Shown here piece after piece: positions 2,156 to 23,012 of a DNA stretch of 37,823 nucleotides. Source of the stretch: Candidatus Stahliibacteriota bacterium (lineage in GTDB: Bacteria; Hydrothermota; UBA3073). The stretch is from assembly GCA_030627085.1 (NCBI GenBank), contig DAOUSS010000002.1:1-37823 (forward strand), in the 5' to 3' direction. The position numbers and the translations under genes were made by a program. Position 1 is the first letter of the stretch. Each line of letters opens with the position of its first letter. The notes below the pieces were generated by a model that did no database searches, was not told the DNA's origin, and saw only the letters and a program-made list of their open reading frames with translations.

Positions 2156-2159
2156 AATA

Positions 2160-2636
2160 TTACCTCCTTTTCTGTGTTACCACAACCCTTGCGGGTCGGG
2201 CAAGTTTCCCCTTTAAGTTATATCCCTTTTCAAGTTCCTCTATGACAATCCCATCCTTGTGCTTGGATGGAACCACAGATACTGCCTCGTGGTACCTGGG
2301 GTCAAATTCCTTACCTACTGATTTAAAAGCCTCAACACCTTCTTTTTTTAATATGCTTAACAGGTGCTTGTATATCAGTTCAATACCCTTAGAGAAGTCA
2401 TTATCGCTATGTTTCACCATAAGTGCCCTTTCAAAATTATCAACGACTGGGATGAATTCTTTGAGGAGCCTTTCGTTTGCATACTTCATAAATTCCTCAG
2501 ATTCCTTTTTCATACGCTTCTTATAGTTTTCAAGATCTGCAAGCGCCATAAGATATTTATTCCTTAGTTCCTTGATCTCTTTATTTTTGGTTTTTATCTC
2601 TTCTTCCAGTTCTTTTTTTGTCTTTTTCTTTTCCAT
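2160..2636 (-). CDS. grpE: Nucleotide exchange factor GrpE
   Basis: Charged coiled-coil N-terminus and GrpE C-terminal domain (..[16 protein letters not shown]). The tracked ORF starts at TTG 2657. I prefer ATG 2636 (MEKKKTKK..) because a GGGGGA run lies just upstream. Confidence 0.9.
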
Positions 2637-2649
2637 AAATCCCCCATAC

Positions 2650-2757
2650 AATATCAAAAATCAAAATGCAAAAAGTTGACGGTTAACAGGCTTCGGTGAA
2701 CTCAGCCGAACCGTTATCGGTGATCGGTAATATAAAATCTGTAATCTAAAATCTACT
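2650..2757. repeat. Composite spacer: A-rich words, CGGTKAW words, A-rich words
   Basis: aatatcaaaaatcaaaatgcaaaa (2650-2673). Then TTGACGG and cggttaa/cggtgaa/ccgttat/cggtgat/cggtaat (2676-2730). Then ataaaatctgtaatctaaaatc. Confidence 0.65.
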
Positions 2758-3448
2758 ACACATTCGTTACTATTATTCCAATCCTGTCCCATCGTATCTT
2801 TTTGAGCAACTTATACATAGGGATTTCTTTCTTCCAGGACCAGTGGATTATAAATGGCCTTCCCCTTAAATTATCATAAGGTAATGGTCCCCAGAATCGT
2901 GAGTCATAAGAGTTGTCTCTGTTATCCCCCATTAAAAAAACATAGTCCTCCGGTATCACTACAGGTCCAAAATTATCTCTGACATACCCGCCTGCATTTC
3001 GAAATTCACCATTCTGCCACAGGCTCTGATATCGTTCTCTGTCACTTATTTTGAGCGGAGGATAAATATGATGTTTATCCGTGTGAATAACATAGGGCTC
3101 CTCCACTTTTTCTCCATTTATATACAGAACCTTACTTCTTATTTCGACCGTATCTCCCGCAACTGCAATACATCGCTTGACAAAGTCCTTACGCTCAAGA
3201 GGAAATCTAAATATAACAATCTCTCCACTCTCTGGCTGATTCCACTTGAATACCATCTTGTTTCGAAATGGTACCTGCAACCCATAATTGAACTTTGTTG
3301 CAAAAAGGAAATCGCCAATAAGGAGGGTGTCTTCCATAGAACCCGTCGGTATCTTGTATGCCTGAATCACATATGCCCTTATTAAAATCACTGCCAGTAC
3401 AATAGAAACCACATCAAGTAACCATTTTCGTGTTTTCTTCTCTTTCAT
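2756..3448 (-). CDS. lepB: Signal peptidase I
   Basis: Has the GSMEDTL serine box, KRCIAVAGD lysine box and GDNRDNSYDSRFWG. ATG 3448 (MKEKKTRKW plus a TM helix) is preferred over the upstream start at 3490, with GGGGG 7 nt upstream. Confidence 0.92.
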   Translation of the reverse strand: MKEKKTRKWLLDVVSIVLAVILIRAYVIQAYKIPTGSMEDTLLIGDFLFATKFNYGLQVPFRNKMVFKWNQPESGEIVIFRFPLERKDFVKRCIAVAGDTVEIRSKVLYINGEKVEEPYVIHTDKHHIYPPLKISDRERYQSLWQNGEFRNAGGYVRDNFGPVVIPEDYVFLMGDNRDNSYDSRFWGPLPYDNLRGRPFIIHWSWKKEIPMYKLLKKIRWDRIGIIVTNV

Positions 3449-3595
3449 TAAAAGACCCCCTTGTATATAGTATTGTAAAAACCAAACCACACCTGCCTAC
3501 TGCAGGCAGAACAGTTTGCAAAGAGAGAAAAGCAGCAGATAATAAGTAGTACGGGTTACATATATAGTTGTATTTCATGGCAGAAAGTTACAAAA

Positions 3596-5443
3596 TCATT
3601 CTCTCACTGCAAGAAACGCCTCCTTCGGTATCTCGACCATTCCTATGCGTTTCATCTTTTTCTTACCTTCTTTCTGTCTCTCAAGCAGTTTACGCTTTCT
3701 AGTTATATCTCCTCCATAGCACTTCGCTGTTACATCCTTTCTTATGGGTGCAACCCTTGATTTTGCTATAATTCTGCCATTACTGGATGCCTGTATCACA
3801 ACCTCAAACAACTGCCTCGGTACAATCTCCTTCAATCTCCTTGTCAACCTTACTCCTTCGTGGTATGCCCTCTCTTTTGATACTATATTTGAAAAGGCAT
3901 CCACTTGCTTTCCATTTACCAATATGTCAAGTTTCACGAAATCTCCGGGTTTGTACTCCAGGAATTCATAGTTAAGAGAAGCGAAACCCTGGGATATTGA
4001 TTTCAAATTATCATAAAAATCAAATATAATCTCCGAGAGTGGAATCTCATATTCTATCTCCACCATATTCTCTCTGTGATAAAGAATAGACCTCTGTATA
4101 CCTCTTTTGCCTTCACAAAGCTCGAGTATTTTTCCTATATATTCAGGAGGCGTGAATATTTTTGCCCTTACAATCGGTTCCTCTATGTTCTCTATTTCTG
4201 TAGGCTTAGGAAGTTGTCCAGGGTTTTCTATCCAGATAATACCTCCATTACGGAGAACGATTCTGTATCGTATATTGGGAGAAGTAGTAACTATGGAGAT
4301 ACCCATCTCTCTCTCCAGTCTCTCTTCTATAATCTTCTTATGGAGCATACCAAGAAACCCGCATCTAAAACCAAATCCAAGCGCGGATGATACTTCAGGT
4401 TCATATACAAGACTTGAATCCGCAAGAACAAGTTTCTCAAGTGCCTCTTTTAACGAGTCATAATCCTCACCATCTGCTGGATATACCCCAGCGTACACAT
4501 ATGGAGTTACCTCACGATAGCCCGGAAGTGGCTCCACATTCTGGATTTCAATTTTTGCTTTTTGCGTTTTGCGTTTTGTCCCGCGGGAGCGGAATGCCGT
4601 CAAAGGCGGGGCATTTTGCACTTTGCATTTTGCACTTTGCATTTTCATTATGGTGTCTCCAACCTTTACATCCTTTGCATCTCTTATATTGCAAATTATA
4701 TACCCTACATCTCCTGATTCAAGAACCTCTGATTTTGTCCTGTCAGGGGAGAAGTAACCCACTTCCTGCACCTCAAAGGTCTTTCCACCTCTAAAAAACT
4801 GAACAATATCGCCAGCTCTTATACTTCCACACATAACCCTTATATAGGGAATAGCTCCTCTATATTCATCGTAGTATGAATCAAATATGAGCGCTTGTAA
4901 AAGGGAGCCTTCTCTTCGAGGTGATGGAATCTTCTCTATTATTCTTCCCATAAGTTCCTCAACCCCCCATCCGTTTTTTGCTGACACAAGGAGTATCTCA
5001 TCTGAATCAAGCAGATCTATAAGTTCTCTCCTTACATCCTCAATGTGTGCATTTGGAAGATCTATCTTGTTTATAACCGGAATTATTATAAGACCTGCGT
5101 CAAGTGCCATATAAAGATTACTCATAGTCTGTGCCTGAACCCCTTGAACTGCATCAACGAGAAGGATTACTCCCTCACATGCAGCAAGACTCCTTGTCAC
5201 CTCATAGGAAAAATCAACATGCCCCGGCGTATCTATAAGATTGAGTATAAACCCCTTATATTCCATTTTTATGGGATGTGCCTTTATCGTTATTCCGTGC
5301 TCCCTTTCAAGCTCCATCCTATCCAGAACCTGCTCCCTCATAAGTCTCCTTGGGATGGTCTCTGTAATCTCAAGCATCCTGTCCGCAAGGGTAGATTTTC
5401 CATGGTCTATATGGGCAATTATACAGAAATTACGTTTATCCAT
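3596..5443 (-). CDS. lepA: Translation elongation factor 4 (LepA)
   Basis: 615 aa with G motifs AHIDHGKST, DTPGH and NKID, and LepA-specific C-terminal KCYGGDITRKRKLLERQKEGKKKMK. It carries a ~32-codon low-complexity insert between domains II and III (see findings). No SD is visible. Confidence 0.96.
   Translation of the reverse strand: MDKRNFCIIAHIDHGKSTLADRMLEITETIPRRLMREQVLDRMELEREHGITIKAHPIKMEYKGFILNLIDTPGHVDFSYEVTRSLAACEGVILLVDAVQGVQAQTMSNLYMALDAGLIIIPVINKIDLPNAHIEDVRRELIDLLDSDEILLVSAKNGWGVEELMGRIIEKIPSPRREGSLLQALIFDSYYDEYRGAIPYIRVMCGSIRAGDIVQFFRGGKTFEVQEVGYFSPDRTKSEVLESGDVGYIICNIRDAKDVKVGDTIMKMQSAKCKVQNAPPLTAFRSRGTKRKTQKAKIEIQNVEPLPGYREVTPYVYAGVYPADGEDYDSLKEALEKLVLADSSLVYEPEVSSALGFGFRCGFLGMLHKKIIEERLEREMGISIVTTSPNIRYRIVLRNGGIIWIENPGQLPKPTEIENIEEPIVRAKIFTPPEYIGKILELCEGKRGIQRSILYHRENMVEIEYEIPLSEIIFDFYDNLKSISQGFASLNYEFLEYKPGDFVKLDILVNGKQVDAFSNIVSKERAYHEGVRLTRRLKEIVPRQLFEVVIQASSNGRIIAKSRVAPIRKDVTAKCYGGDITRKRKLLERQKEGKKKMKRIGMVEIPKEAFLAVRE
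4549..4647. repeat. Spacer-like word-array element inserted in-frame in lepA
   Basis: Sense strand: (tgcaaag/tgcaaaa)x4, GC-rich core ccccgccTTTGACGGcattccgctcccgcggg, then (acaaaac/gcaaaac/gcaaaaa). Confidence 0.8.
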
Positions 5444-5450
5444 AAATGTA

Positions 5451-5485
5451 GTAATTAGGTTATTGAGTTATTAAGTCATTGAGTG
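5451..5485 (-). repeat. TAATNACC-class word array directly upstream of lepA
   Basis: The minus strand reads cactcaatgacttaataactcaataacctaattac and then ..ATG. Confidence 0.7.
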
Positions 5486-5556
5486 TCTGGTAAAAAAATA
5501 GTGTCCGAATGAAATTTTCACCGGGATCTAATTAAGTAAATGGTTGTAGCACTTCG

Positions 5557-5619
5557 TTACACATTACACATTCCACATTTCACATTCCACCTTCCACATT
5601 TCACATTACACATTCCACC
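5557..5619. repeat. G-free CACATT-type word array overlapping the panC stop
   Basis: ttacacattacacattccacatttcacattccaccttccacatttcacattacacattccacc. 63 nt with no G. Confidence 0.8.
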
Positions 5620-6463
5620 TGGCTGGAACTGCGATTATGTTGTCAATCAACCTTGTCCTGCCAAAATAGACAGCAAGGGCGAGTAGTACCGGTTTGTTTA
5701 TTGTCTTTACAAGTTTTAGGTTCTTACTGTCAACCACCTCTATATAATCAATTCGTGCCGTCCTTTTCCCTTCTATCATCTTGCGCATTGTTTTAATAAT
5801 TTTATCTGTATTATCCTCACCCTCTTCTACCAGATTTTTTCCGAAGAGCAAGGATTTATACAGAACTGCAGCGTCTTTCCTCTCCTTGTCCGTCAAGTGT
5901 ATATTTCTTGAAGAGACTGCAAGTCCATCACCTTCTCTAACAGTGGGAGAGAGGACTATCTCTATATCAAGATTCGTATCAGAAACCATTCTCTTTATCA
6001 GTATCGCCTGCTGATAATCCTTTTCTCCAAACACTGCAAGATGCGGTCTAACAATGTTAAAAAGTTTCATACATACAGTAGCAACCCCTCTCATATGTCC
6101 TGGTCTTCTTGCTCCACAGAGTGTAGCATCAAATCCTTCTACCTCTACATAGGTTGAATAACCTGTGGGATACATATCTTTTATGTCTGGATAAAATAGT
6201 ATATCAACATCTCTCTCTTTAAGAAGTCGTTTATCACGCTCAAAATCCCTCGGATAGGTCAGATAATCTTCAGATGGTCCAAATTGCTTTGGATTTACAA
6301 ATATGCTTACTACAACAATCTCAGATAGAGATCTCGCTCTATCTATAAGGGAGAGGTGCCCTTTATGCAGAAAACCCATCGTCGGGACAAACCCTATCTT
6401 CTCCTCCTTTCGGAGTTCACAAGAGAGGATCTGCATATTTTTTACAGTAGTAATTACCTTCAT
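5606..6463 (-). CDS. panC: Pantoate--beta-alanine ligase
   Basis: 285 aa with FVPTMGFLHKGHLSLI. Length and N-terminal spacing match PanC. The last ~4 codons are encoded by the downstream word array. Confidence 0.93.
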   Translation of the reverse strand: MKVITTVKNMQILSCELRKEEKIGFVPTMGFLHKGHLSLIDRARSLSEIVVVSIFVNPKQFGPSEDYLTYPRDFERDKRLLKERDVDILFYPDIKDMYPTGYSTYVEVEGFDATLCGARRPGHMRGVATVCMKLFNIVRPHLAVFGEKDYQQAILIKRMVSDTNLDIEIVLSPTVREGDGLAVSSRNIHLTDKERKDAAVLYKSLLFGKNLVEEGEDNTDKIIKTMRKMIEGKRTARIDYIEVVDSKNLKLVKTINKPVLLALAVYFGRTRLIDNIIAVPARWNV

Positions 6464-6911
6464 AGATTCTATTATACAGTTCTGTTATGGATACCTTTTC
6501 TTTTGGATGTATAAAAAAAGGAGCAATCTCCTTCAAAGGAACAAGCACAAATAGTCTCTCGGTAAGCCTGGGGTGAGGTATAATAATGCCAGGGGCGTCT
6601 ATAAGCATATCGCCAAAAAAGAGTATATCTATATCAATCGTTCTTGGCGCAAATCTTTTACCCCTTTCTCTACCAAGATGGGCTTCTATCTTATGAATGT
6701 ATCCGAGGAGTTCAAACGGCGAGGCAGAGGAGAAATCGTACTCCAGAACACAATTTAGAAACATTGGCTGTGGGGTTTCAGCCACAGGTTCTGTTTCGTA
6801 AACTGATGATGTCTTTACGATTCTCCCATATTTAGAAAGACATTTTGCAGCCTCTTGTAGATTAGATAATTTTCCTCTTAAATTAGACCCAAGACAGAGG
6901 TATGTTAACAA
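6417..6911 (-). CDS. folK: 2-amino-4-hydroxy-6-hydroxymethyldihydropteridine pyrophosphokinase (HPPK)
   Basis: 164 aa with YLCLGSNL, RFAPRTIDIDILF and IIPHPR. TTG start lies 10 nt after AGGAGG. It overlaps the panC start by 47 nt. Confidence 0.88.
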   Translation of the reverse strand: MLTYLCLGSNLRGKLSNLQEAAKCLSKYGRIVKTSSVYETEPVAETPQPMFLNCVLEYDFSSASPFELLGYIHKIEAHLGRERGKRFAPRTIDIDILFFGDMLIDAPGIIIPHPRLTERLFVLVPLKEIAPFFIHPKEKVSITELYNRIYEGNYYCKKYADPLL

Positions 6912-7023
6912 TCAGTATCACCCTCCTTTAACTCTTCAAGGTAAGAAACGGCAGTAACATCCGCCACAGCATAAATATAGATATTGAGAAGAAGACAATA
7001 GAAACCCATCAAAATCTATTTAT

Positions 7024-7052
7024 ATTATAACACAAAAATCCCAAAATTTCAA
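7024..7052 (-). promoter_or_regulatory. Sigma70-like promoter for folK-panC
   Basis: Minus strand TTGAAA (7052-7047), 17-nt spacer, TGtTATAAT (extended -10, TATAAT 7029-7024). Confidence 0.6.
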
Positions 7053-7091
7053 GTTTTTTTTGAAAAAAATATAATCCTGCCTTAAAAATAC

Positions 7092-7120
7092 TTGACAAAC
7101 AGGAAATTTTGGTGTAAAAT
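7092..7120 (+). promoter_or_regulatory. Sigma70-like promoter for ftcD (long structured leader)
   Basis: TTGACA 7092-7097, exactly 17-nt spacer, TAAAAT 7115-7120. Divergent from the folK promoter. Confidence 0.6.
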
Positions 7121-7140
7121 AGGCAAATGCAAGGGTCGAA

Positions 7141-7387
7141 TTGGACGCAGATTTACGCAGATTATCAAGATTTTTTATATTTCTTCTATTATTATGGTGT
7201 AAACAAGGGGAAATGGAGAACGTCCCACTTCGTTGGTGCCCGAAAGTGAAAAATATGAAGTTTTATAAGTTATTGTTTCTCAATAAAATATAATTTTTTC
7301 TTCTCCATTTCTCTATATTCACCCTTTCTCCTTATGATTTTCGCAGTTAATTCGTTATCCTGTTCATCTGCGTAAATCTGCGTCCAA
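7141..7387. repeat. 247-bp element bounded by perfect 22-bp inverted repeats (MITE-like element or long RNA hairpin)
   Basis: TTGGACGCAGATTTACGCAGAT (7141-7162) is the exact reverse complement of 7366-7387. A nested inverted repeat GAAATGGAGAA (7210-7220) / TTCTCCATTTC (7301-7311) lies inside. Confidence 0.8.
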
Positions 7388-7396
7388 AAATAACAA

Positions 7397-7452
7397 TTTT
7401 GCATTTTGATTTTTGATATTTGATTTTTAATTTTTTATATATTGTATGGGGG
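7397..7452 (+). repeat. T-rich TTTTGAT leader module (shared with the grpE leader and with 9374-9406)
   Basis: ttttgcattttgatttttgatatt (7397-7420) is identical to the reverse complement of 2650-2673. attgtatggggg (7441-7452) is identical to the reverse complement of 2641-2652. Confidence 0.8.
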
Positions 7453-7456
7453 TTAT

Positions 7457-9130
7457 ATGGCTCTTGTGGAATGTGTTCCGAATTTTTCTGAAGGAAGAAA
7501 TAGAAATGTAATAAAGGCGATCACTGACGAGATTGAGTCTGTAGAAGGAGCTACGCTTTTAGATGTTGATCCCGGTAAGGCAACAAACAGGACAGTTGTA
7601 ACATTTGCTGGAACACCGGAGGCAGTGGTTGAGGCAGCATTTCAAGCAATAAAGAAGGCAAAAGAGCTTATAGATATGTCAGGGCATATGGGTGAACATC
7701 CAAGAATGGGTGCAACAGATGTATGCCCGCTCGTGCCAATATCGGGTATAACTATAGAGGAGTGCGTTGAACTTGCACATAAACTCGCAAAAAGAGTGGG
7801 TGAAGAACTGGAGATACCCGTATACCTCTACGAATATGCAGCGACATCTCCCCAGAGGAAAAGCCTTGCAGACATAAGAAAAGGAGAATACGAAGGCCTC
7901 AAAGACAAACTTAAGGACCCAAACTGGGTACCGGATTACGGACCTGCAGGCTTTGATAAAAAGGCAGGTGCAACTGTTATAGGAGTAAGAGAATTTTTAA
8001 TAGCATACAATGTAAACCTTAATACAAGGGACAGAAAACTTGCACAGAAGATTGCCCTCAACATTCGTGAAAGTGGGAGAGCAAAGAGGGATGAAGAGGG
8101 AAGGATTTTAAGAGACGAAAACGGTACGATTATAAAGACAAAAGGGAATCTTAAGTGCGTAAGGGCAGTAGGGTGGTATATTGACGAGTATAATATGGCA
8201 CAGGTATCTATCAACCTTACAAATTACAAGGTAACTCCACTCTATCGCGTGTTTGATGAGTGTTGTAAGGAAGCAGCGAAACTGGGGCTGAGGGTAACCG
8301 GAAGTGAAGTTGTCGGGCTTATTCCAAAGGACGCACTACTTGAGACAGGGAGACACTATCTATTAAAACAGGGGAAAACCGCAGGTGTTCCTGAAAAGGA
8401 GCTTATAAGGGTTGCTGTCCAGACACTTGGACTATCCGAGCTAAAACCATTTATTCCAGATAAAAAGATAATCGAATACAGGGTAGAGAAGCAGAAATCT
8501 CTTCTCCAGATGACCGCAAGGGATTTTATAGATGAGGTATCTATGGACTCTCCTGCTCCCGGGGGTGGCAGTGTATCAGCTCTCTCAGGCGCTCTTGGAG
8601 GCGCCCTCCTGTCAATGGTATGCAGTCTCACGGTTGGCAAAAAGGGATACGAGAATGTATGGAAAGCAGTCAAGGAGATGGGAGAAAATGTACAAAAATT
8701 GAAGGATGAACTTATAAGACTTGTGGATGATGACACAGAAGCATTTAATGGGATAATAACTGCGATAAAACTTCCTAAAAAGACAGAAGAGGATAAGAAA
8801 AAAAGAGATGAGGCAGTAGAAGAGGCAACAAAGAGAGCAATTCTCGTTCCTCTGAGAGTTATGCGAGAGGGCAAAAAGATACTTGAACTGTTGAAGGAGG
8901 CTGCAAGTATATGTAATGTGAATGCAATATCAGATATTGCAGTAGGTGCACTTGAGGCGGAAACTGCGGTCAGAGGAGCAGGATTGAATGTGGATATAAA
9001 CATCCCAAATGTAAGAGATGAGAAATTTAAGAAAGATGTAGTAAATGAAAGGGAAGAGATAGAAAAAGAGGCAGTTAAGATGAGAAAAGAGATAGAGAGG
9101 GTAGCGAAAGGGAGGATGATGGGGAAGTGA
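7457..9130 (+). CDS. ftcD: Bifunctional glutamate formimidoyltransferase / formimidoyl-THF cyclodeaminase
   Basis: N-terminal MALVECVPNFSEGRN.. transferase domain and C-terminal cyclodeaminase domain (DSPAPGGGSVSALSGALGG). ATG 7457 is preferred over TTG 7442 because GGGGG lies 4 nt upstream. Confidence 0.9.
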   Translation: MALVECVPNFSEGRNRNVIKAITDEIESVEGATLLDVDPGKATNRTVVTFAGTPEAVVEAAFQAIKKAKELIDMSGHMGEHPRMGATDVCPLVPISGITIEECVELAHKLAKRVGEELEIPVYLYEYAATSPQRKSLADIRKGEYEGLKDKLKDPNWVPDYGPAGFDKKAGATVIGVREFLIAYNVNLNTRDRKLAQKIALNIRESGRAKRDEEGRILRDENGTIIKTKGNLKCVRAVGWYIDEYNMAQVSINLTNYKVTPLYRVFDECCKEAAKLGLRVTGSEVVGLIPKDALLETGRHYLLKQGKTAGVPEKELIRVAVQTLGLSELKPFIPDKKIIEYRVEKQKSLLQMTARDFIDEVSMDSPAPGGGSVSALSGALGGALLSMVCSLTVGKKGYENVWKAVKEMGENVQKLKDELIRLVDDDTEAFNGIITAIKLPKKTEEDKKKRDEAVEEATKRAILVPLRVMREGKKILELLKEAASICNVNAISDIAVGALEAETAVRGAGLNVDINIPNVRDEKFKKDVVNEREEIEKEAVKMRKEIERVAKGRMMGK

Positions 9131-9135
9131 TGGAA

Positions 9136-9207
9136 ATAGTTTATTGGTTTAATAGTTTATTAGTTTAATAGTTTGTTAGTTTAATAGTTTATTAGTTTGT
9201 TAGTTGG
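9136..9207. repeat. C-free TAGTTTAT-type word array downstream of ftcD
   Basis: atagtttattggtttaatagtttattagtttaatagtttgttagtttaatagtttattagtttgttagttgg. 72 nt with no C. Confidence 0.8.
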
Positions 9208-9292
9208 TCAGGTTATTTGGAGTGACAGCGTTTACGTTTAAATTTGTTGAATCCATCGACCAATAAAAAAATACGAAATTGCAATTTTTTTC

Positions 9293-9321
9293 TTGACATT
9301 TCAAAAATTAAAGTGTATAAT
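9293..9321 (+). promoter_or_regulatory. Consensus sigma70 promoter
   Basis: TTGACA 9293-9298, 17-nt spacer, TATAAT 9316-9321, with an A/T-rich upstream region. Confidence 0.7.
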
Positions 9322-9322
9322 T

Positions 9323-9363
9323 TAGGTGTTAGGTGTCGGGTGATAGGTTCAAGGTGTTAGGTG
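9323..9363 (+). repeat. AGGTGTT word array (six SD-like words, period 7)
   Basis: AGGTG at 9324, 9331, 9352 and 9359. GGGTG at 9338. AGGTT at 9345. The array begins 2 nt after the -10 box. Confidence 0.8.
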
Positions 9364-9373
9364 AAAAATAACT

Positions 9374-9406
9374 CATTTTGATTTTTAATCTTTGATTTTT
9401 AATTTT
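9374..9406 (+). repeat. T-rich TTTTGAT leader module, third copy
   Basis: cattttgatttttaatctttgatttttaatttt, followed by accaGGGGG. Confidence 0.7.
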
Positions 9407-9513
9407 ACCAGGGGGTGCCTATAGGGAATTAGGGTATGCGGCCTGGTATAAAACTATTGTAACTGTCAATTTTGGCGTATGCCCTCATACTCCTGCAGGT
9501 ATAATGAATAAGC

Positions 9514-9538
9514 GCCAGGTCTCGTCCTGGCTTTTTTT
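9514..9538 (+). terminator. Rho-independent terminator
   Basis: GCCAGG (9514-9519), loop TCTCGT, CCTGGC (9526-9531), then T7 (9532-9538). It ends 27 nt before the murJ-like start. Confidence 0.75.
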
Positions 9539-9565
9539 ATAGAATAATGCGTTCGTAGGAGGAAT

Positions 9566-11098
9566 TTGGAAAGATTGCAGATAGAGTCTAAAGATAGAGG
9601 ATTGGCGAATGCTACATTCTGTGTAGTTTTTGCCAATGCCGTCTTTTTTCTCCTTAACTTTGGAAAAGGTGTCTTAATAGCCAATTACATTGGAGCAGGA
9701 ACAGATATGGATGCATATCTTGCGGTCGAATCCATCCCTGCTATTTTAATCGCTCTTCTTTCGGGGGCGCTTATTGCGGGTGTCATTCCTGAATTATCAA
9801 AGATAAAGAATTCAAAAGAAGGGTTGAATTTGTCCAACTCCATCTTGAACATAACTATAATCAGCGCATCTTTCATGGTGTTTATATTGATAATCTCCTC
9901 CCGTTTCATTATCCCTACCTTCTTTGAGTTAGAGAATTCAAAGATAGCGATAAAATTAAGTTATTTCTTATTTCCATTTCTGATAACAGGACTCGCGTTT
10001 AGTGTACTTAAAAGTATTGCAAACACACACAAAATCTTTCTGCTCCCTGCCCTGTCCCCTTCAATATATATTCTCATCATTATTCTATGCGTTATATTAC
10101 TCTCTCAAAGATTGGGAGTTATTAGTCTTGGCATCGGCGTCCTCGTTGGTTCCATTCTACAGGTATTATTCATATTTTCTGAGCTAAAAAAACATGGATT
10201 TCGTTATAAACCTTATGTGGACTTTCATAATCCTCACCTTTCTAAAACCGCCAGAATGACTGCGCCTTTGGTTGTTGGTTCTGCCCTTGCAAATTTCAAT
10301 GTTTTTGTAGACAGAGTAATGGCATCAAGGCTGTCTGCAGGTAGTGTTTCAGCACTCCATTACGGTTATATCCCTCTCACATTTGTTCTTAGCTTCTTCA
10401 CGGTAGCGATCTCAACCAGTATATTGCCCTATTTTAGTGAGTATGCAGCATCCAATAATATTAAGAAAATCAAGAGCACATTTATGTCAGGGGTAAATCT
10501 TTCTATATTTATTACATTGCCGGTAGCGGTATTGTTTTGGTCGATTGCTACTCCTCTTGTTAAGATCGTTCTTGAGAGAGGAGCATTTACTTCAAACAAT
10601 ACTGCGGCGGTCTCAACGGCACTTAGACTCTATGCTCTGGGGCTTCCCTTTATAGCAATTAATGCTATCATCGTAAGAGTTTACCATGCTCTTCAAAAAA
10701 ATATAGTGATAATGTTAGTTGCTATACCGTATGTTGTATTCAATATTCTCTTCAACTGGATTTTGTCAAAACCCCTTGGACATGGAGGAATTGCTCTTTC
10801 CACCTCGATTGATTATTTTATTGTCGTATCTATCCTGTTTGTTATATTAAACAGTCAGATCGGGGGCTTATTTGCAAAAAGACATCTGATTTCTTGCTGT
10901 AAAACTATCTTATGCACCTGTATTATGGCATTCTCCATTTATGCCTTTCTCTATTATTCTAAAGAATTTGCCATAGTTACCAGTTTATTATCATCAATAA
11001 TTATTGGTCTGGCGATATATTGGTTGACTGCGTTACTCATCAGACACGGAGAGATAAAAAATCTTTGTAATATATCCAGAAAAATACTCAACAGATAG
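9566..11098 (+). CDS. murJ: MurJ/MviN-family (MOP superfamily) lipid-linked oligosaccharide flippase
   Basis: 510 aa and polytopic (~14 TM). N-terminal GAGTDMDAYLAVESIPAIL resembles the MurJ signature. TTG start lies only 3 nt after AGGAGG, so the start is uncertain. As the first gene of the polysaccharide locus it could act as a Wzx-type flippase. Confidence 0.7.
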   Translation: MERLQIESKDRGLANATFCVVFANAVFFLLNFGKGVLIANYIGAGTDMDAYLAVESIPAILIALLSGALIAGVIPELSKIKNSKEGLNLSNSILNITIISASFMVFILIISSRFIIPTFFELENSKIAIKLSYFLFPFLITGLAFSVLKSIANTHKIFLLPALSPSIYILIIILCVILLSQRLGVISLGIGVLVGSILQVLFIFSELKKHGFRYKPYVDFHNPHLSKTARMTAPLVVGSALANFNVFVDRVMASRLSAGSVSALHYGYIPLTFVLSFFTVAISTSILPYFSEYAASNNIKKIKSTFMSGVNLSIFITLPVAVLFWSIATPLVKIVLERGAFTSNNTAAVSTALRLYALGLPFIAINAIIVRVYHALQKNIVIMLVAIPYVVFNILFNWILSKPLGHGGIALSTSIDYFIVVSILFVILNSQIGGLFAKRHLISCCKTILCTCIMAFSIYAFLYYSKEFAIVTSLLSSIIIGLAIYWLTALLIRHGEIKNLCNISRKILNR

Positions 11099-11101
11099 AT
11101 T

Positions 11102-12298
11102 ATGGAAATTGCATTAGTTCCGCTATTTGCTGCTATTGCTTACTTTGGCATCCTCATTCCGGGGGTAAGTCTTGCTGTCACATTATTTGCTGCCTATTCT
11201 CATATCAGTATATTCATAGGACCTGTCTTCTTGCCATTGGTTGCTATTACATTGGCAAGTTTTATCTTATATAAGTTATTTAAAAGAGACTTAACTATTG
11301 CCTATCTACCCGTAAATAAATTTATATTTCTCTTTATTGCTACTATCTTTTTCTCTCTATTCTTCACACAGGACTGGGAGAGAGCGATCTACGATCTTTT
11401 TATTTTCTTAAAATCGTTGGTCCTCTTCTTTCTGATTGTCAATATTGCTAAAGACGAAAATACTATAATTCATCTTATTGAAACGGTCGTAGTTGCTGTT
11501 TTATGCGGCTCAATTATTGCATTAAGTGAGTATCATACTACCATCCATGTATTTCTATTTAGTGGGCGCACGGGTAGTGTGCTTGAGGATCCTAATTTTT
11601 TTGCTTCAATGTTGGTATCAGTTTTGCCTTTCTCTATTTTCCTCTTTAAGAGAGAAAGAAATCTGTATTTAAAATCGTTTTGGGGTGTCTGCTCCGTTTT
11701 TCAGCTCTTTTCAATAGTTCCTACCTTCTCGAGGGGAGGGATAATTGGACTAGTTGTAATACTCTTTCTTGTTGTACTACATGAAAGAAAGAATAAGTGG
11801 ACTTGGATAGTGCTCCCATTAGTTATCTTAGTCTTTGCTATAGTTGTTCCATTCGACTTTTGGATAAGAATTATGACCTTAATAAATACACAGTATGACA
11901 AAGCTATCGGTCACAGACTCCTTCTTATGAAGTCCGGAATAAAAGTATTCTCCCAATACCCAATAATAGGAGTTGGGACAGGTGATTTTATAAACGCCAT
12001 ATCAAGATATATGAATCATCCAATGGTTGCGCATAATATGTATCTACATGTTTTTGTGGAGACAGGTATTATTGGAGGCACGTTCTTTCTTTGTATACTT
12101 GGAAATGTGCTTTGGAGTCTCCACAGAGCAAAACAGATAAGTGACCTGGCTGCTTATATGGAAATCTCCCTAATAGGATTGTTTGTAACGGCCTTCTTTC
12201 TCTCTATACACTTTCATTTTTGGGTATGGGCACTCCTTGGGATTGTATCGGCATTCTTGAGGATTAAATTATGGCGGAGACCTTACTGGTTATATTAA
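11102..12298 (+). CDS. O-antigen ligase / Wzy-like polymerase family membrane protein
   Basis: 398 aa and multi-TM. Wzy_C-like motifs PTFSRGGIIGLVV and AHNMYLHVFVETGIIGG. Starts 3 nt after the flippase stop. Confidence 0.8.
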   Translation: MEIALVPLFAAIAYFGILIPGVSLAVTLFAAYSHISIFIGPVFLPLVAITLASFILYKLFKRDLTIAYLPVNKFIFLFIATIFFSLFFTQDWERAIYDLFIFLKSLVLFFLIVNIAKDENTIIHLIETVVVAVLCGSIIALSEYHTTIHVFLFSGRTGSVLEDPNFFASMLVSVLPFSIFLFKRERNLYLKSFWGVCSVFQLFSIVPTFSRGGIIGLVVILFLVVLHERKNKWTWIVLPLVILVFAIVVPFDFWIRIMTLINTQYDKAIGHRLLLMKSGIKVFSQYPIIGVGTGDFINAISRYMNHPMVAHNMYLHVFVETGIIGGTFFLCILGNVLWSLHRAKQISDLAAYMEISLIGLFVTAFFLSIHFHFWVWALLGIVSAFLRIKLWRRPYWLY

Positions 12299-13959
12299 TA
12301 ATATTCGGGAAATCGATACAGAATCTATGTCTTTGCTACTCTCCTTTACAGGATTATAAACTCATAGGAGATAAGTTTGACCTTGTTATTGCAGACCCAC
12401 CATCGAAGCAAATTGTGGACAGTATACGGAAATATAATTCCTCATTACCAATACTTGGATATAGAGATTTAATCGCAATGCATTCCTGTTATGAAGACTG
12501 GAATAAATGCAACTTGAAAGAATTCGCGTTTCTTCATAGTACTGACCCTGCGGGTGTTAGTGTAATTTCGTGTAATGATAGTTGCATAATCAATTGGGAG
12601 GAGGATTGGAGGGATATAGTAATAGGCTATAATTTATACAAATCAGTATACCCTGACAGCAATTTAGTAAGGGTTAACAGAGATATTATTACCAGTACAA
12701 GTTATGTGGACAAAGAGTTCAAACCTCCTCAATACTACTTAATCAAATCTGTTACAGATTCTTACGGTGAGGTAGATTTTTCAATTGTCAAGTGTGTAGA
12801 TGCCAAAACGAAGCCTATAATGCTTACCAACCAGGATTACAAAATCTTAGATATAGATACTGTGGATGACAGCATAAGTTTCAGCATCTATCTGAGCATC
12901 AAAAAATTTGGAAATACAAAGCCTGATAGTGCACTTGTGCACTTATACTTAAATCGCGGATGGTTTAATTTTGTTGATTATTCATTTATCATGACTTCAA
13001 TAGATAATAGAAAGTATACTTGCACCACCAATATAACACTTCCAACATCATATAAAGCCGGCATATCATACTATTTCCAGTTTATAAAAGATACCACCAT
13101 CTTCAGGTTACCTGCTGAGGACTTCACTTATTATACGACAAACCCAAATAATAGATTGAAAAATCCTAATTATGGCTGGTATGCAATGGATGTCACAAGT
13201 CCAGATTGGATATCACATTATGTCTCACAATGCAAAATTATACTATCTATGGGTATGGATGGCATATTTGCTGACGATGCCGCAAGGGATATACTATGGC
13301 GTTTGGATTGCAAACCTCTTGGATATAAAGAAAAAACTTGGATAGACGGGATGAATAGAATGATTTCGTTTGTACGGAAGACTATATATCCTCAAATACT
13401 TATATTCAATGGACTAAGAGACGACCTTATATTTCTTGAATCCGCCGACGGAGGAGTGATTGAACACTTCGTACATACAAACTCCGGATACCTATCAAAA
13501 AAGAATTGGGAAAGACAGATCAATACAATGCTAAAAAGCCCTCCCGGGAAAAAAATACTTGTAATTTCCAGGGGAAAGGAAGAAGACGCATCTGCAAGAA
13601 TTTTCTCCATTGCATCATATCTACTTGGTAACTCGAAAGATTCCTACTACTGCTACGCTGAAAATTACGATAGGATGGAGTACTACCCTGAATATGAGAT
13701 TGATATCGGATATCCGTTGAGTGAAAAATCAACTTTATTGGCGCTCTTTGACAAAAAAACAGGTATCTATAAGCGATATTTTTCTAATGGTATTGTTTTA
13801 GTAAATCCAGATGCCTTAAATTCCAAAGCATTTAAATTTGATGATACCTTGCATCATGTAGTACTCCATGAAAACACGTGCAAATATATCCCAATTGCTA
13901 ATTCTTTATCTCTCTCTTCCAAAAGCGGTGCAATTCTATTATATGAAAAAAAGAATTAA
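12271..13959 (+). CDS. Hypothetical protein, putative TIM-barrel glycoside-hydrolase-like enzyme (GH114/PelA/GHL-like) with an Fn3-like segment
   Basis: 562 aa. MDGIFADDA and GGVIEHF segments resemble the DG(V/I)F(L/A)D core of GH114/GHL families. GYNLYKS..TSYVD looks Fn3-like. Overlaps both neighbouring genes. The family call is from memory and was not searched. Confidence 0.45.
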   Translation: MAETLLVILIIFGKSIQNLCLCYSPLQDYKLIGDKFDLVIADPPSKQIVDSIRKYNSSLPILGYRDLIAMHSCYEDWNKCNLKEFAFLHSTDPAGVSVISCNDSCIINWEEDWRDIVIGYNLYKSVYPDSNLVRVNRDIITSTSYVDKEFKPPQYYLIKSVTDSYGEVDFSIVKCVDAKTKPIMLTNQDYKILDIDTVDDSISFSIYLSIKKFGNTKPDSALVHLYLNRGWFNFVDYSFIMTSIDNRKYTCTTNITLPTSYKAGISYYFQFIKDTTIFRLPAEDFTYYTTNPNNRLKNPNYGWYAMDVTSPDWISHYVSQCKIILSMGMDGIFADDAARDILWRLDCKPLGYKEKTWIDGMNRMISFVRKTIYPQILIFNGLRDDLIFLESADGGVIEHFVHTNSGYLSKKNWERQINTMLKSPPGKKILVISRGKEEDASARIFSIASYLLGNSKDSYYCYAENYDRMEYYPEYEIDIGYPLSEKSTLLALFDKKTGIYKRYFSNGIVLVNPDALNSKAFKFDDTLHHVVLHENTCKYIPIANSLSLSSKSGAILLYEKKN

Positions 13960-15058
13960 GGTACTTCAAATTGTTAAAACACTCGATGTCCTTGGGGGAG
14001 CAGAAAGGATGGCTTATTGTATTGCAAAAGGTTTGGATAAAAAGCGGTTCAATATCACAGTATGTTCTCTTAAAAGGTTCTCGTCTCCAATTTTGAAAGA
14101 AATGGAAGAAAACGATGTCAAAGTGTATTTTATTAAGAATAAAAAGAAACTGAGTATGAGCTTTTACAACGACCTCCTTTCTGTTATAAGGACGGTCAAA
14201 CCAGATATTATACATACACACAATTTTTACCCAAATATGTACGGCAGATTACTTGGGAAAATGATGCCCAGGGCGAAAATTGCAATACACGAGCATGGAA
14301 CCGCGTATCTTAAAACAAGAAAGGAAAGATTTATAGATAAATGCCTTATTGGTTTTACGGATATGGTACTGGCAGTCTCAATGAGCGTCGTCAACTCATT
14401 AGTTGATATAGAAGGTATACCTCCATCTAAAATCACACTCCTTCCAAATGGCGTTGATTTAAATGAATTCAATCCAGCAAATATTCATACAAATGACATA
14501 AAAAAGTCCCTCGGTATACCTTCCTCCTCTAAGATCGTTGGAATGGTTGCTCGACTCCATAAGCATAAAGACCATGAAACCCTACTTTATGCTATGTCCG
14601 ATATTATCAAAAATGAACCTGAAACAACCCTAGTTTTAGTGGGTGATGGTCCTGAAAAGAAGAAATTACAAAAGCTGTCGGAAAAACTTACAATTTCAAA
14701 AAATGTGATATTTACAGGGTACAGAAAGGATGTTCCAGAATTAACCTCTTTGTTCGATATCGCAGTATTATCTTCAAAGACAGAGGGGTTTGGAATCAGT
14801 CTGCTTGAGGCTATGGCTATGGAAAAACCTGTAGTAGCAACTTCAACTGGAGGAACTGTAGATATTGTAGCTGATGGTGTCAATGGGTTTCTCGTACCGC
14901 CCTGCGATACAGCCTCTCTAAAGGAAACAATAATAAAGATCCTTAAGGATGAAAGCCTCGCACGTAGATTCGGGCTTATGGGCAGAAGAATTGTAGAGGA
15001 AAAATTCAGTATGGATAAAACCATACAAAACTTGGAGTATATTTATGAAACGCTGTAA
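13943..15058 (+). CDS. GT4-family glycosyltransferase
   Basis: MKKRIKVLQIVKTLDVLGGAERM N-terminus and EX7E region EGFGISLLEAMAMEKPVV. ATG 13943 is preferred over the extended start at 13868. Confidence 0.9.
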   Translation: MKKRIKVLQIVKTLDVLGGAERMAYCIAKGLDKKRFNITVCSLKRFSSPILKEMEENDVKVYFIKNKKKLSMSFYNDLLSVIRTVKPDIIHTHNFYPNMYGRLLGKMMPRAKIAIHEHGTAYLKTRKERFIDKCLIGFTDMVLAVSMSVVNSLVDIEGIPPSKITLLPNGVDLNEFNPANIHTNDIKKSLGIPSSSKIVGMVARLHKHKDHETLLYAMSDIIKNEPETTLVLVGDGPEKKKLQKLSEKLTISKNVIFTGYRKDVPELTSLFDIAVLSSKTEGFGISLLEAMAMEKPVVATSTGGTVDIVADGVNGFLVPPCDTASLKETIIKILKDESLARRFGLMGRRIVEEKFSMDKTIQNLEYIYETL

Positions 15059-16187
15059 ACTTGACCAAAGTCTATTTGGACGATGCATAAGAGGGTTTTA
15101 CAAAATAAAAAACACTGCCTACAGCCTATTTGAGAAGAAGAGACCAGTCAATAATGAGAGAAACATTTCTTTGAGCGAGATGACCATCGTGGTAGAAAAC
15201 TTCATCGAGTTTAGGTCATCTAATTTTCATATTTCTACAGGACAAAAATGCGCTAGATATAGCACTCATCTACATTCAAACAGGTCTTATATAACTCTGG
15301 CACAGGAGAGACTTGTAATGAGTTATATCAATCTCTACAGAAAAAAGCATAAAAATGGCTATCTAAACAGAGCAATAGCAATAGGGCGATACATAGAAAG
15401 GAGCATGGCGCCGGAGGGTATTATTCCTTTTCATAAGCCCTTTTTTTATCCTCAAGATGAAGGAGTAAGTACTTATTGGGCAATTCCTTGCTTTACAGAA
15501 CTTTTTAATGAAACATCAAATAGTGACTTTTTAAGAGATGCTATCGAGTTGGGAGAAGGAGGCAGAAATCTATTGTTCGGGGATAAGTATGGATATACTC
15601 ATACACTGGGGCAAAAAATTTGGTGTCCAAATGTAAGCGCGATAGCCGCCTATGCCTATAAAAGTCTTTACGAAGCTACTGGTAACCAGAAATATTTGCG
15701 CTGGGCAAGAGATGGACTTAAATTTTCAGCGGACAAGATGAAAAAAACAGGACTTTTCCCCTATTCAGAAACAAGACCTACACTTTATATGTCCATCTAT
15801 CAAGCTATAACAATGGCTTTGTTAATGCCCTTCCTTAAGGATTCTCTGGGCAGTGAATTCAATGTTTCTGATAGATTGAGGAGGGCCTGCGCCTTTTTGA
15901 AGACTTTGATTCGCGAGGACGGTTCTGTAATGGAGCCTGAAATGACATGCTACGCCTACTTACCCAGTATGGTGGCTACCCTTGCTGTTCTGAAATACAT
16001 CGGAGAGAAAGAATACTTTGTGAGAGTTTTTAATTTTATGAAGGTTTTTTTTCAGACGAAAGCGCCGTTTCTCTATATCTCCTTTGATAAAAAACTCTAC
16101 AATGGATCTATGATAGATTTCCATGATGTTATTATGACGGAAGTGTTATACTGGCTTACAACCATAGTGGACAATAATGGAGTATAA
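15045..16187 (+). CDS. Hypothetical protein (possible alpha/alpha-barrel polysaccharide-modifying enzyme)
   Basis: 380-aa ORF, translationally coupled on both sides by 14-nt and 11-nt overlaps inside the GT cluster. I recognise no motif. The helical-repeat impression is weak. Confidence 0.6.
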   Translation: MKRCKLDQSLFGRCIRGFYKIKNTAYSLFEKKRPVNNERNISLSEMTIVVENFIEFRSSNFHISTGQKCARYSTHLHSNRSYITLAQERLVMSYINLYRKKHKNGYLNRAIAIGRYIERSMAPEGIIPFHKPFFYPQDEGVSTYWAIPCFTELFNETSNSDFLRDAIELGEGGRNLLFGDKYGYTHTLGQKIWCPNVSAIAAYAYKSLYEATGNQKYLRWARDGLKFSADKMKKTGLFPYSETRPTLYMSIYQAITMALLMPFLKDSLGSEFNVSDRLRRACAFLKTLIREDGSVMEPEMTCYAYLPSMVATLAVLKYIGEKEYFVRVFNFMKVFFQTKAPFLYISFDKKLYNGSMIDFHDVIMTEVLYWLTTIVDNNGV

Positions 16188-17289
16188 AATCTGCTTCCTT
16201 GGTTCTGGTAGACACATCCTTACCCGAAGATTGGCACGAAATTTGGCAGAACGGGGGCATAATGTTCATCTTGTGTCTTTCGAACAGCTTGATAAGAAGA
16301 TAGATTGGGGAAATGTTACTCCACACTTTGTTAAGCCATCGTTTCCCAATTATCGTTCTTTTCTTTTTCCAGTGAGAGAGATAAAAAATATCATTGAAAA
16401 AGGCTCTTTTGATATTTTACATGGCTTTCAGGCTACAAATTATGGTATCTTGGGAGCAAGAATAGATTTTAACCCATATGTCGTTTCAACTCTTGGCTCA
16501 GATATTCTCTATACTCCATTTGCTGGACATAGATATAAAAACTACATACTCCAGAAAGTGGTCAACTATACCTTTAAAAAAGCGGATATTATAACTGTAG
16601 AGACGAGGTATGCTAAAGATTTCATAATATCCAATTTTCAAGCCGATAAGCGAAAATTAAAGATTCTCTCCTACGGGGTTGAACCCAATGTTTTCAGGAG
16701 CACCAGACATTCCAATCCCGACAAACTAACAATTATCAGTCCAAGGGCAATGAAGAAAATATATAACATTGATGTAATTGTAAGGGCTATCCCTTTGTGT
16801 ATCCAGCAATACCCAGATCTAAAGTTCACATTCTTGGGCGGTATAGGAAACAGACAATACATTAAAGCCATCGAAAATTTGGTATCGAAACTAACCATAG
16901 GTAACCATGTAAGGTTTACAAAAGACATCTTGTCCCCCGCAGGAATGGCGGATGAATTCTCAAAAGCCAGTATCCTCATTTCAATCCCATTGACTGATTC
17001 CTTACCAAAATCTGTATTAGAGGGTGTATTATGCGGAGCTGTTCCGATTTTGAGCGATATTCCAGCAAATAGAGAAATTGAAAACATAGGAATTCCTGTC
17101 ATCTTTGTTGCCAGAAACAGCCACAGGGAACTGGCAGATAAGATCCTATGGGTTATTAAGAACTTAGACAAGATTAGAAAAAGGGTTAAGAAAGCAAGCT
17201 ATCAAATAGCAAGAGAGTATAGTACTGAAGCGTGTATAAACGGGTTAGAAAATATCTATTGCAAACTTTTAGGTGGAACGAAAATATGA
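16177..17289 (+). CDS. GT4-like glycosyltransferase
   Basis: 370 aa with MEYKICFLGSGRHILTRRLARNLAERGHNVHLV (GT-B N-domain) and a C-terminal DSLPKSVLEGVLCGAVPI EX7E-like region. Confidence 0.8.
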   Translation: MEYKICFLGSGRHILTRRLARNLAERGHNVHLVSFEQLDKKIDWGNVTPHFVKPSFPNYRSFLFPVREIKNIIEKGSFDILHGFQATNYGILGARIDFNPYVVSTLGSDILYTPFAGHRYKNYILQKVVNYTFKKADIITVETRYAKDFIISNFQADKRKLKILSYGVEPNVFRSTRHSNPDKLTIISPRAMKKIYNIDVIVRAIPLCIQQYPDLKFTFLGGIGNRQYIKAIENLVSKLTIGNHVRFTKDILSPAGMADEFSKASILISIPLTDSLPKSVLEGVLCGAVPILSDIPANREIENIGIPVIFVARNSHRELADKILWVIKNLDKIRKRVKKASYQIAREYSTEACINGLENIYCKLLGGTKI

Positions 17290-22973: not shown

Positions 22974-23012
22974 TATATACTTATTCTTGACCACCAGATA
23001 ACCTGTTCAATT

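Follow-up and report, generated by a model that had tools for sequence, protein, structure and literature searches.

A conserved non-coding module, with its own promoter and its own intrinsic terminator, stands ahead of the polysaccharide loci of related genomes in the candidate division WOR-3/'Candidatus Stahlbacteria'. It is described here from 9293–9538 of a 37,823-nt stretch of DNA (henceforth the window) of Candidatus Stahliibacteriota bacterium (GCA_030627085.1, contig DAOUSS010000002.1, positions 1–37,823, forward strand), where it lies between the gene for formiminotransferase-cyclodeaminase (FTCD; 7457–9130) and a co-directional polysaccharide locus of ~15.2 kb on the plus strand (9566–24782). 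The near-invariance of a 38-nt segment in otherwise divergent copies suggests that the module may be a factor-dependent cis-acting 5′ leader with a terminator checkpoint, serving a variable surface-polysaccharide operon—a reading that we hold to be about evenly balanced between right and wrong. Its proposed kind, a polysaccharide-operon leader with a terminator checkpoint, is a known one; what is new is the sequence motif, which is undescribed and restricted to one lineage.

To our knowledge, the passage of the polymerase through long surface-polysaccharide operons depends, in every phylum that has been well studied, on a dedicated device (e.g., RfaH/ops, UpxY/opsX, LoaP hairpins or EAR RNA), whereas we know of no such device in WOR-3/Stahlbacteria, which had no cultured member until recently. 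The module is thus a testable candidate for such a device in this lineage: its consensus promoter and canonical terminator should function with a heterologous RNA polymerase in vitro, and the 38-nt sequence could be used as bait for a factor. Moreover, hypervariable glycan loci have their left boundary at the module, which makes it useful for annotating and typing them in metagenome-assembled genomes.

Conservation of the module and its position

The sigma-70-type promoter of the module lies on the plus strand at 9293–9321, with TTGACA (9293–9298) and TATAAT (9316–9321) separated by a 17-nt spacer. It matches the consensus at 12/12 positions, as an earlier note on this DNA had said, and a promoter scan found it to be the sole such match in bases 1–20000. 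Both hexamers and their spacing are identical in eight sequences, namely the window and the relatives L001, L035, L036, L121, L125, L127 and L129; a promoter kept almost base for base in this way is not a chance match. From the position of the -10 hexamer, transcription is predicted to start at ~9328. The -35 hexamer is adjoined by an A/T-rich tract (9263–9292, plus strand), a possible UP element, of which the T7 run beside the hexamer is kept in all lineages. Two further promoter configurations were considered and rejected: an invertible promoter, because the flanks hold only A/T-run inverted repeats, and a second promoter built on the TATAAT at 9500–9505, because this hexamer reads TATTAT in L121 and TACAGC in L036 and a start from it would fall inside the terminator.

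The relatives were gathered with FTCD as the anchor, and the percentages that follow are FTCD identities to the window. Six distinct complete copies of the module were found in related WOR-3/Stahlbacteria genomes: those of the window (9293–9538), L001 (97%), L036 (82%; identical to L115–L117 over the module region), L121 (77%; identical to L124 over that region), L125 (76%; likewise identical to L126) and L129 (77%). Two partial copies add to these, one ending in the apical loop of the hairpin described below (L127, 85%) and the other just past the -10 hexamer (L035, 98%). Effectively, only four to five independent lineages are represented. When a covariance model was trained on the window, L001 and L036 only, it detected the L121 group (L121, L125 and L129) at 61–63 bits with E ~1e-14, and no other copy in the 24 sources searched (~210 kb); a paralogous copy was rejected, as the model found none in the window or in the searched loci without the module. 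Searches with exact patterns for the core gave hardly anything but chance matches: GGGTATGCGNCCTGGTAT matched 26 loci in genome contigs, only L001 being real; GGTGCCTATAGG-N-GGGTATGCG matched L001 and L036 only in the same kind of contigs; and TAGGGTATGCG-N-GGCGTATRCCC gave 4 matches in metagenome contigs, all in unrelated high-GC sequence.

All copies share the left flank lepA-panC-folK-FTCD, and in all of them the module is placed between FTCD and a co-directional polysaccharide locus, the first genes of which differ from lineage to lineage. In the window and L001 these encode a MurJ-like flippase followed by Wzy, in L036 a Wzy_C protein followed by a Polysacc_synt flippase, and in L121, L125 and L129 a GT1 glycosyltransferase followed by a flippase and Wzy. 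Similarity between lineages ends ~5 nt past the U-tract of the terminator, and in five of the six lineages the first start codon comes 14–27 nt past it (27 in the window, 14 in L036 and 19 in each of L121, L125 and L129), a gap too short for a standard promoter. The absence of room for another promoter, noted earlier for the window alone, extends to four of the five relatives with complete copies, and the suggestion that the locus needs read-through of the terminator gains strength from the comparison, in that the module is kept before loci with differing first genes. The exception is L001, with ~201 nt (1843–2043) between the terminator and the ribosome-binding site (RBS) of the flippase gene, flanked by a 9-nt direct repeat, ATAATGCAT. 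In four relatives with a different neighbourhood (L118, L119, L120 and L130; 77%), FTCD is followed by a convergent gene and a hairpin of its own, and the module is absent (in L118 and L130 also by the covariance-model search). As for homologues of the flippase itself, only two relatives at ~50% identity were found, both inside other loci and neither with a comparable leader.

The hairpin, its invariant arm and the terminator

The transcript from ~9328 falls into four parts: a heptamer array, an A/U-rich spacer, a long hairpin, and a linker with the terminator. No plus-strand open reading frame (ORF) of at least 30 aa lies inside 9322–9538, which bears out the earlier observation of ~210 nt devoid of a credible ORF. 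The hairpin is imperfect and spans 88 nt (9415–9502, plus strand); its basal helix pairs 9415–9424 with 9493–9502, its upper helix pairs 9431–9443 with 9474–9485, a variable section lies between the two, and a variable apical loop of 30 nt (9444–9473) closes the structure. A variable, A-rich linker of 11 nt (9503–9513, plus strand) then leads to the terminator. Each lineage folds independently to the same hairpin and terminator, and RNAalifold on three lineages gives the same consensus. On the model-guided alignment of the six lineages, standard pairs form in 90% of cells, as against 32–47% when the register is slid by 1–3 columns. Seven one-sided changes are seen, all on the 3′ arm or the 3′ strand of the terminator and all preserving pairing (G-C to G-U, U-G to U-A); in the basal helix every 3′-arm substitution keeps pairing, and the A/C mismatch of the window in this helix is an A-U pair in the five other lineages. 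In the L121 group three pairs of the upper helix are lost. Set against shuffled sequences, the whole leader does not fold significantly better (z = -1.04), while for the isolated hairpin, with mononucleotide shuffles, z is -1.75 (window) and -3.5 to -4.2 (relatives).

Conservation of sequence is concentrated in one strand of this hairpin. A near-invariant block of 38 nt (9411–9448, plus strand; GGGGGTGCCTATAGGGAATTAGGGTATGCGGCCTGGTA), made up of a G-run and the 5′ arm, is identical at 35/38 positions between the window and either L036 or L121, for which the third codon positions of FTCD are only 52% and 46% identical, respectively. The remainder of the structure has drifted, with window–L121 identities of 7/24 in the apical loop, 3/11 in the linker and 19/33 in the 3′ arm. 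That the 5′ arm should stay nearly fixed while the loop, the linker and the FTCD third positions diverge points to sequence-specific recognition rather than pairing alone. The hairpin is, on this comparative evidence, plausible and maintained, with sequence-specific selection on one strand as the dominant signal; the invariance of that strand may in turn reflect recognition by a factor or, alternatively, a strand with more than one pairing partner.

A closer comparison concerns the window and L001, where 9411–9538 and its counterpart (1701–1827) show ~14 differences over 128 nt, mostly in the loop, linker and 3′ arm, while the flanking genes are 97–99% identical and the FTCD third positions 97% identical. 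This 128-nt core may have evolved faster than the neighbouring synonymous sites or been subject to recombinational exchange.

The intrinsic terminator (9514–9538, plus strand) is as the earlier note had described it, with GCCAGG (9514–9519), the loop UCUCGU, CCUGGC (9526–9531) and U7 (9532–9538). Its stem of 6 bp, with 5 G-C pairs around the 6-nt loop, is 100% paired in six lineages, four of which (L036 and the three of the L121 group) have it lengthened to 7 bp. It is the best plus-strand terminator of the window, though not, as had been claimed, its only clean one, since 35485–35499 followed by T6 also looks canonical. The predicted minimum free energy (MFE) structure is the hairpin plus the terminator, and the terminator has an equilibrium probability of at least 0.99 in 4/5 full-length leaders. 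With the competing antiterminator conformer disfavoured, termination would, on energetic grounds, be the default state, and read-through would need help.

That competing conformer involves GGCCUGGU (9440–9447, plus strand), the candidate 5′ strand of an antiterminator, which is complementary to the terminator 5′ arm at 9514–9521 (GCCAGGUC). All three alternative pairings listed in the earlier note exist in the window sequence, and the one between CCUGG and GCCAGG is the core of this 8-bp pairing, which is kept in 47/48 cells across six lineages; the sole variable 5′-arm position within it (G/A) faces U/C, giving G-U, A-U and, three times, G-C. The antiterminator duplex is predicted at -11 to -19 kcal/mol, as against -10 to -14.5 kcal/mol for the terminator hairpin, and equals or beats it in 4/5 lineages. 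The pairing GGGUAUGCG:CGUAUGCCC likewise proved real, as the upper helix of the longer hairpin, which three lineages retain and the L121 group has lost in part. The remaining one, CCAGG (9408–9412) with CCUGG (9442–9446), is specific to the window (10 nt there), its partner reading UAAGG in L001, CCCGG in L036 and ACUGG in the L121 group. Consequently, the 1:2/2:3/3:4 attenuator layout that had been built on these pairings does not hold, the actual structure being one long hairpin (9415–9502) and then the terminator.

A proposed read-through checkpoint and its rivals

If the module is indeed a leader with a checkpoint, RNA polymerase would initiate at a constitutive consensus promoter and transcribe the G/U-rich heptamer array, the A/U-rich spacer and then the invariant 38-nt segment. 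The hairpin (9415–9502) would form, the terminator (9514–9538) would halt most transcripts to leave an RNA of ~175–210 nt, and the glycan genes would be expressed only upon read-through. We infer both the read-through and a trans-acting factor behind it, which would recognise the invariant 5′ arm sequence-specifically, either as nascent RNA or as non-template DNA. Such a factor might act in one of two ways: it might render the elongation complex resistant to termination, i.e., processive antitermination of the kind associated with LoaP, RfaH and UpxY, or it might hold the hairpin open, so that 9440–9447 could pair with the terminator 5′ arm (9514–9521). We slightly favor the former over the latter.

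Parallels to such a device come from several directions. In the LoaP-dependent dfn/mln polyketide operons of Bacillus velezensis, where LoaP is a NusG paralogue, a hairpin and then an intrinsic terminator likewise precede the first gene of a very long biosynthetic operon, and in the dfn leader this arrangement is described as an 'initial regulatory checkpoint' (PMC12691694). The LoaP hairpin is small with a UNCG tetraloop, whereas that of the module is 88 nt long and has, in place of a UNCG tetraloop, a variable loop of 30 nt; LoaP is found in a Gram-positive host, whereas the module belongs to a diderm WOR-3 host with no loaP-like gene in the window. LoaP-family regulators are reportedly linked to polysaccharide clusters in some bacteria, as Goodson et al. 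are said to have found in 2017. In Proteobacteria, the RfaH/ops/JUMPstart system offers a parallel in position and in mode of conservation: a non-coding element between a conserved housekeeping gene and a hypervariable polysaccharide cluster (JUMPstart sits between hemH and variable O-antigen clusters; PMC5399914), conserved in sequence rather than structure and serving a long operon (PMC5399914, PMC11685472). Nevertheless, ops has 12 nt while the module block has 38 nt and is one arm of a large RNA hairpin; the module block is immediately followed by an intrinsic terminator, while RfaH mainly counters Rho and H-NS; and the 12-nt ops element, GGCGGTAGNNTG, has no match with up to 2 mismatches inside 9293–9565.

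The capsule-operon leaders of Bacteroides bear opsX elements, sequence-specific recruitment elements of ~40 bp, and the UpxY/opsX system resembles the module in combining a leader element of this size with a nascent-RNA hairpin; the opsX element is multipartite and, together with that hairpin, controls surface-glycan diversity (PMC11685472). The differences are that upxY and upxZ open each Bacteroides locus while the module locus has no NusG paralogue, that the opsX motif YGCGNAGCR has no match with up to 1 mismatch in the leader, and that, unlike at Bacteroides capsule loci, no inverted repeats beyond the A/T runs flank the module promoter and thus give no sign of an invertible promoter. Finally, in the account given in PMC7858274 of the work of Irnov and Winkler (2010), EAR is a cis-acting processive antitermination RNA of the Bacillales eps operons that lets the polymerase bypass intrinsic terminators; to the extent of that account, it shares with the module the nature of a cis-acting structured RNA dedicated to an exopolysaccharide operon. 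The module matches neither EAR nor any other Rfam family. The earlier failure to place the sequence among known riboswitches, 6S, signal recognition particle (SRP) RNA or ops is borne out by scans that came back empty: Rfam 15 gives no match at gathering thresholds in the window and five related loci, and only chance-level matches at E <=10 over 9100–9620. SRP RNA, 6S RNA and transfer-messenger RNA were rejected in the absence of Rfam matches.

Several observations weigh against the checkpoint reading. Termination and read-through are predictions from comparative and thermodynamic evidence, and no NusG paralogue or other candidate regulator was found in the 38-kb window when 30 main ORFs, other than that at 2756–3490, were compared with Pfam for NGN/KOW. 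A look at covariation in the relatives, as the earlier note had proposed, found the hairpin and the 8-bp pairing kept and the helix at 9408–9412 lost; no two-sided compensatory change appears in any helix, because the 5′ arm does not vary. The antiterminator pairing is indistinguishable from chance in a shuffle control (285/500), it has an A/C mismatch in L036 at its variable position, and the whole antiterminator conformer lies 6–17 kcal/mol above the MFE. Hexamers resembling a -10 element (TATAGA, TATACT, TATATT) overlap the end of the U-tract and could give a weak second promoter; in L001 the insertion carries an extended -10 (TGCTATAAT) just before the RBS, facing the flippase gene, and its ~200 nt indicate that adjacency of terminator and gene is not obligatory. 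Last, the copies are all from a single narrow clade and have their left-flank synteny in common, so that their position could be a matter of inheritance and not of function.

Some of these points are also what an independent small RNA (sRNA) gene would lead one to expect. In that case the module would produce an abundant trans-acting RNA of ~175–210 nt, with the 38-nt segment as a seed or protein-binding site and the position before glycan loci as inherited synteny. We regard this as doubtful though deserving of real weight, and an sRNA role would be compatible with a leader role, the two not being mutually exclusive. The module is a discrete unit with its own promoter and terminator and with the terminated product as its thermodynamic default; one of its segments is strongly conserved while the flanks drift, as in many sRNAs; an insertion of 200 nt, with a possible promoter, is tolerated between terminator and flippase gene in L001; and all copies belong to one clade and share the left-flank synteny. 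On the other hand, five of the six lineages leave the first glycan gene no space for a promoter of its own; the conserved segment is not exposed, being paired as the 5′ arm of a stable hairpin; the 5′ end of the transcript is a variable-copy array of a type seen in a genuine mRNA 5′ untranslated region (5′ UTR), that of prfB in the same window; and no Rfam sRNA family matches. Should the short terminated RNA prove to act in trans, it would be among the first sRNA candidates in the phylum. A more austere alternative does without dedicated regulation altogether: a leaky terminator would end FTCD transcription and insulate the locus, the strong promoter would compensate, and the hairpin and arrays would be 5′ UTR structure that, e.g., stabilises the mRNA. 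Terminator prediction finds none between the FTCD stop (9130) and the module promoter, so FTCD transcripts probably also end at 9538; in L118, where the neighbour of FTCD differs, a separate hairpin lies directly 3′ of FTCD; and tandem arrays abound between genes and in 5′ UTRs across the genome. Against it, a consensus promoter ahead of a strong terminator would be wasteful unless the terminator were regulated, and 35/38 identity at near-saturating synonymous divergence exceeds what a stabilising hairpin needs, the more so as the complementary arm drifts freely. Hence this alternative appears unlikely.

Two remaining alternatives would place the control of the terminator in the leader itself. 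For ribosome-mediated attenuation, the candidate is a mini-ORF that has its start in the invariant arm and its stop in the apical loop (AUG CGG CCU GGU AUA AAA CUA UUG UAA, encoding MRPGIKLL; 9436–9462, with the UAA at 9460–9462), a ribosome translating or stalled on it being supposed to melt the upper helix and alter terminator formation. Mini-ORFs of 6–8 codons starting with MRPG occur in 7/7 sequences that cover the region (MRPGIKLL in two, MRPGRKLQ, MRPGKY in three L121-group sequences, and MRPGMKL); the 3/3 differences between the window and L001 are synonymous, including CGG/CGA at the sole variable position in that half of the 5′ arm; and the invariant block, which covers roughly -25 to +13 as counted from the AUG, is about as long as a translation-initiation region. 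This has to be set against the lack of a Shine–Dalgarno sequence conserved at a workable distance (the UAGGG that some lineages have 9 nt upstream is replaced by UAGUA in the L121 group, and no more than 1 nt separates the adjacent AGGGU from the AUG), against the mostly non-synonymous changes past codon 4 and the varying length across all lineages, and against the fact that short ORFs ending in an A/U-rich loop are expected by chance, all of which make this mechanism highly improbable. A metabolite riboswitch, in which the hairpin would serve as aptamer and the terminator as expression platform, would fit a structured element directly before an intrinsic terminator and the conserved 8-bp alternative pairing to the terminator 5′ arm. 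Yet the structure is a single hairpin without a multi-helix junction; the apical and internal loops, where ligand binding would be expected, are its most variable parts, with conservation on one strand only; and no Rfam family matches in any of the six lineages. For these reasons the riboswitch-type reading entertained in the earlier note comes out as the least probable of those weighed, and very unlikely. The T-box, of which AAUUAGGGU presumably resembles the start of the characteristic sequence, was also rejected, there being no Rfam match, no Stem I architecture and no amino-acid-related gene.

Tandem arrays, inserted elements and the downstream locus

The transcript would begin in a heptamer tandem array (9322–9363, plus strand) with 6 copies of TTAGGTG (RNA consensus YAGGUKU), followed by the A/U-rich spacer (9364–9410, plus strand), which holds TTTGATTTTTAATC twice, tolerates indels and in L036 has received a 20-nt palindrome. 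The number of heptamers varies from 2 in L001 through 3 in L036 and L127, 4 in L125 and L129 and 6 in the window to 10 in L121, while every lineage has the same unit. Tandem arrays with a period of 7 or 8, with 2–10 copies and many different units, occur in nearly every intergenic region of the window (165–212, 2723–2754, 5450–5484, 5560–5618, 7396–7435, 9137–9205, 9322–9406, 26288–26371, 28770–28854, 31738–31810, 32278–32427 and 37198–37248), such that the presence of one in the leader is unremarkable. The array 3′ of the FTCD stop changes its unit even among relatives at 97–98% identity (TAGTTTAT in the window, GCTATCAR in L001 and TAATGGGG in L035), which implies a fast turnover of arrays. 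Intergenic heptamer arrays of this sort are reminiscent of the short tandemly repeated repetitive (STRR) heptamers of cyanobacteria.

A bolder proposal is that the leader array is a slippage-variable decoy, whose copy number would set terminator formation and thereby tune surface-glycan expression heritably and reversibly, with the invariant 38-nt arm being read by an antitermination factor of a kind undescribed in the phylum. The points offered for it are the retention of the unit across lineages, the copy range of 2–10 and the results of folding: the array unit YAGGU resembles the terminator 5′ arm (CCAGGU) and the 3′ strand of the basal helix (UAGGUAU), and the predicted terminator occupancy drops from 0.99 to as low as 0.03 as heptamers are added, in equilibrium folding that ignores co-transcriptional kinetics. 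A variable-copy 7-nt array between the promoter and the coding region of surface-structure genes is also reportedly a feature of hmw1A/hmw2A of Haemophilus influenzae, for which Dawid et al. are said to have described, in 1999, 5′ heptanucleotide repeats with a copy number that tunes adhesin expression. However, with arrays in nearly all intergenic regions, including those of housekeeping genes, copy-number variation alone is, in distinction to hmw, no evidence for phase variation, and we consider the decoy decidedly improbable. A protein-binding array of the HutP/TRAP type, prompted by UAG-N4 repeats beside a histidine-utilisation gene, was rejected in view of the 7-/8-nt arrays in nearly all intergenic regions, with units that include CAG and with 2–10 copies. 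Also rejected were a leader peptide from GUG-AAA-GAU-AAC after the array, which has 6, 22 or 27 codons depending on the lineage and is absent in the L121 group, and a minus-strand ORF of 72 aa (9466–9684), which extends into the lineage-specific downstream gene and thus could not be conserved.

Other instances of such repeats can be found throughout the window. One intergenic array sits inside an operon, between rplM and the probable rpsI, and heptamer arrays are present even within coding regions, as TTTTGCG and GCATTTT in lepA (4553–4649) and TACTCCC in the Wzi-like ORF (22542–22587). The only other 12/12 promoter of the window, on the minus strand upstream of prfB (37283–37255), is again TTGACA-17-TATAAT, with a TG; the 5′ UTR of prfB in this region (37283–37030) consists entirely of a period-8 array (TAGTTGGT x6) that runs into the RBS TAGGAGGGGTGATG, and the classic form of the RF2 +1 frameshift site (GGGAGG...CTTTGA) is visible near 37135 in prfB on the same strand. 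The U-rich block TTTTGCATTTTGATTTTTAATTTT of the leader (9372–9406), best kept in L001, L036 and L127, recurs at 7396–7435 just 5′ of the FTCD RBS, and may be a common A/U-rich 5′ UTR element.

Inserted elements are a further feature of this intergenic region. The 20-nt palindrome CCTGCCTACCGGCAGGCAGG is found at differing spots, namely at 5804–5823 in L036, at 1885–1904 in L001 and ~140–175 nt upstream of the promoter in L121, L125 and L129, being nested within a second copy in L121; it looks like a small mobile element akin to repetitive extragenic palindromes (REP-like). The window contains no match to the corresponding pattern, CCTGCC-N(4-12)-GGCAGG. The L001 insertion has partial terminal inverted repeats (TGTCAAA) and purine-rich followed by pyrimidine-rich tracts, and looks like a miniature inverted-repeat transposable element that supplies an outward-facing promoter. 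In L128 (FTCD 79%), the module promoter is cut within the -35 hexamer (CTTGA/GGGATAGG...), 118 nt past the FTCD stop; the sequence beyond the cut is unrelated, contains two strong hairpins and may be the end of an IS200/IS605-type element, and the contig ends before the other junction.

The polysaccharide locus of the window opens, 3′ of the terminator, with the gene for a MurJ/MatE-family flippase, the RBS and starts of which occupy 9557–9577 on the plus strand: AGGAGG at 9557–9562 is followed by alternative TTG starts at 9566, 27 nt past the U-tract, and at 9575, and the cluster representative P0001 of the flippase begins at the second TTG. The gene order of the locus is MurJ/Wzx-type flippase, Wzy_C, GHL15, a GT4 glycosyltransferase, a protein of unknown type, three more GT4 proteins, a Bac_transf priming transferase, a Wzi-like protein and an OmpA-family protein. 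At the start of the OmpA-family ORF (called start GTG 22929) lies an 11/12 promoter match, TTGACA-17-TATACT (22945–22973), so that this gene, the last in the locus, may be transcribed from a promoter of its own and translated from a later start codon.

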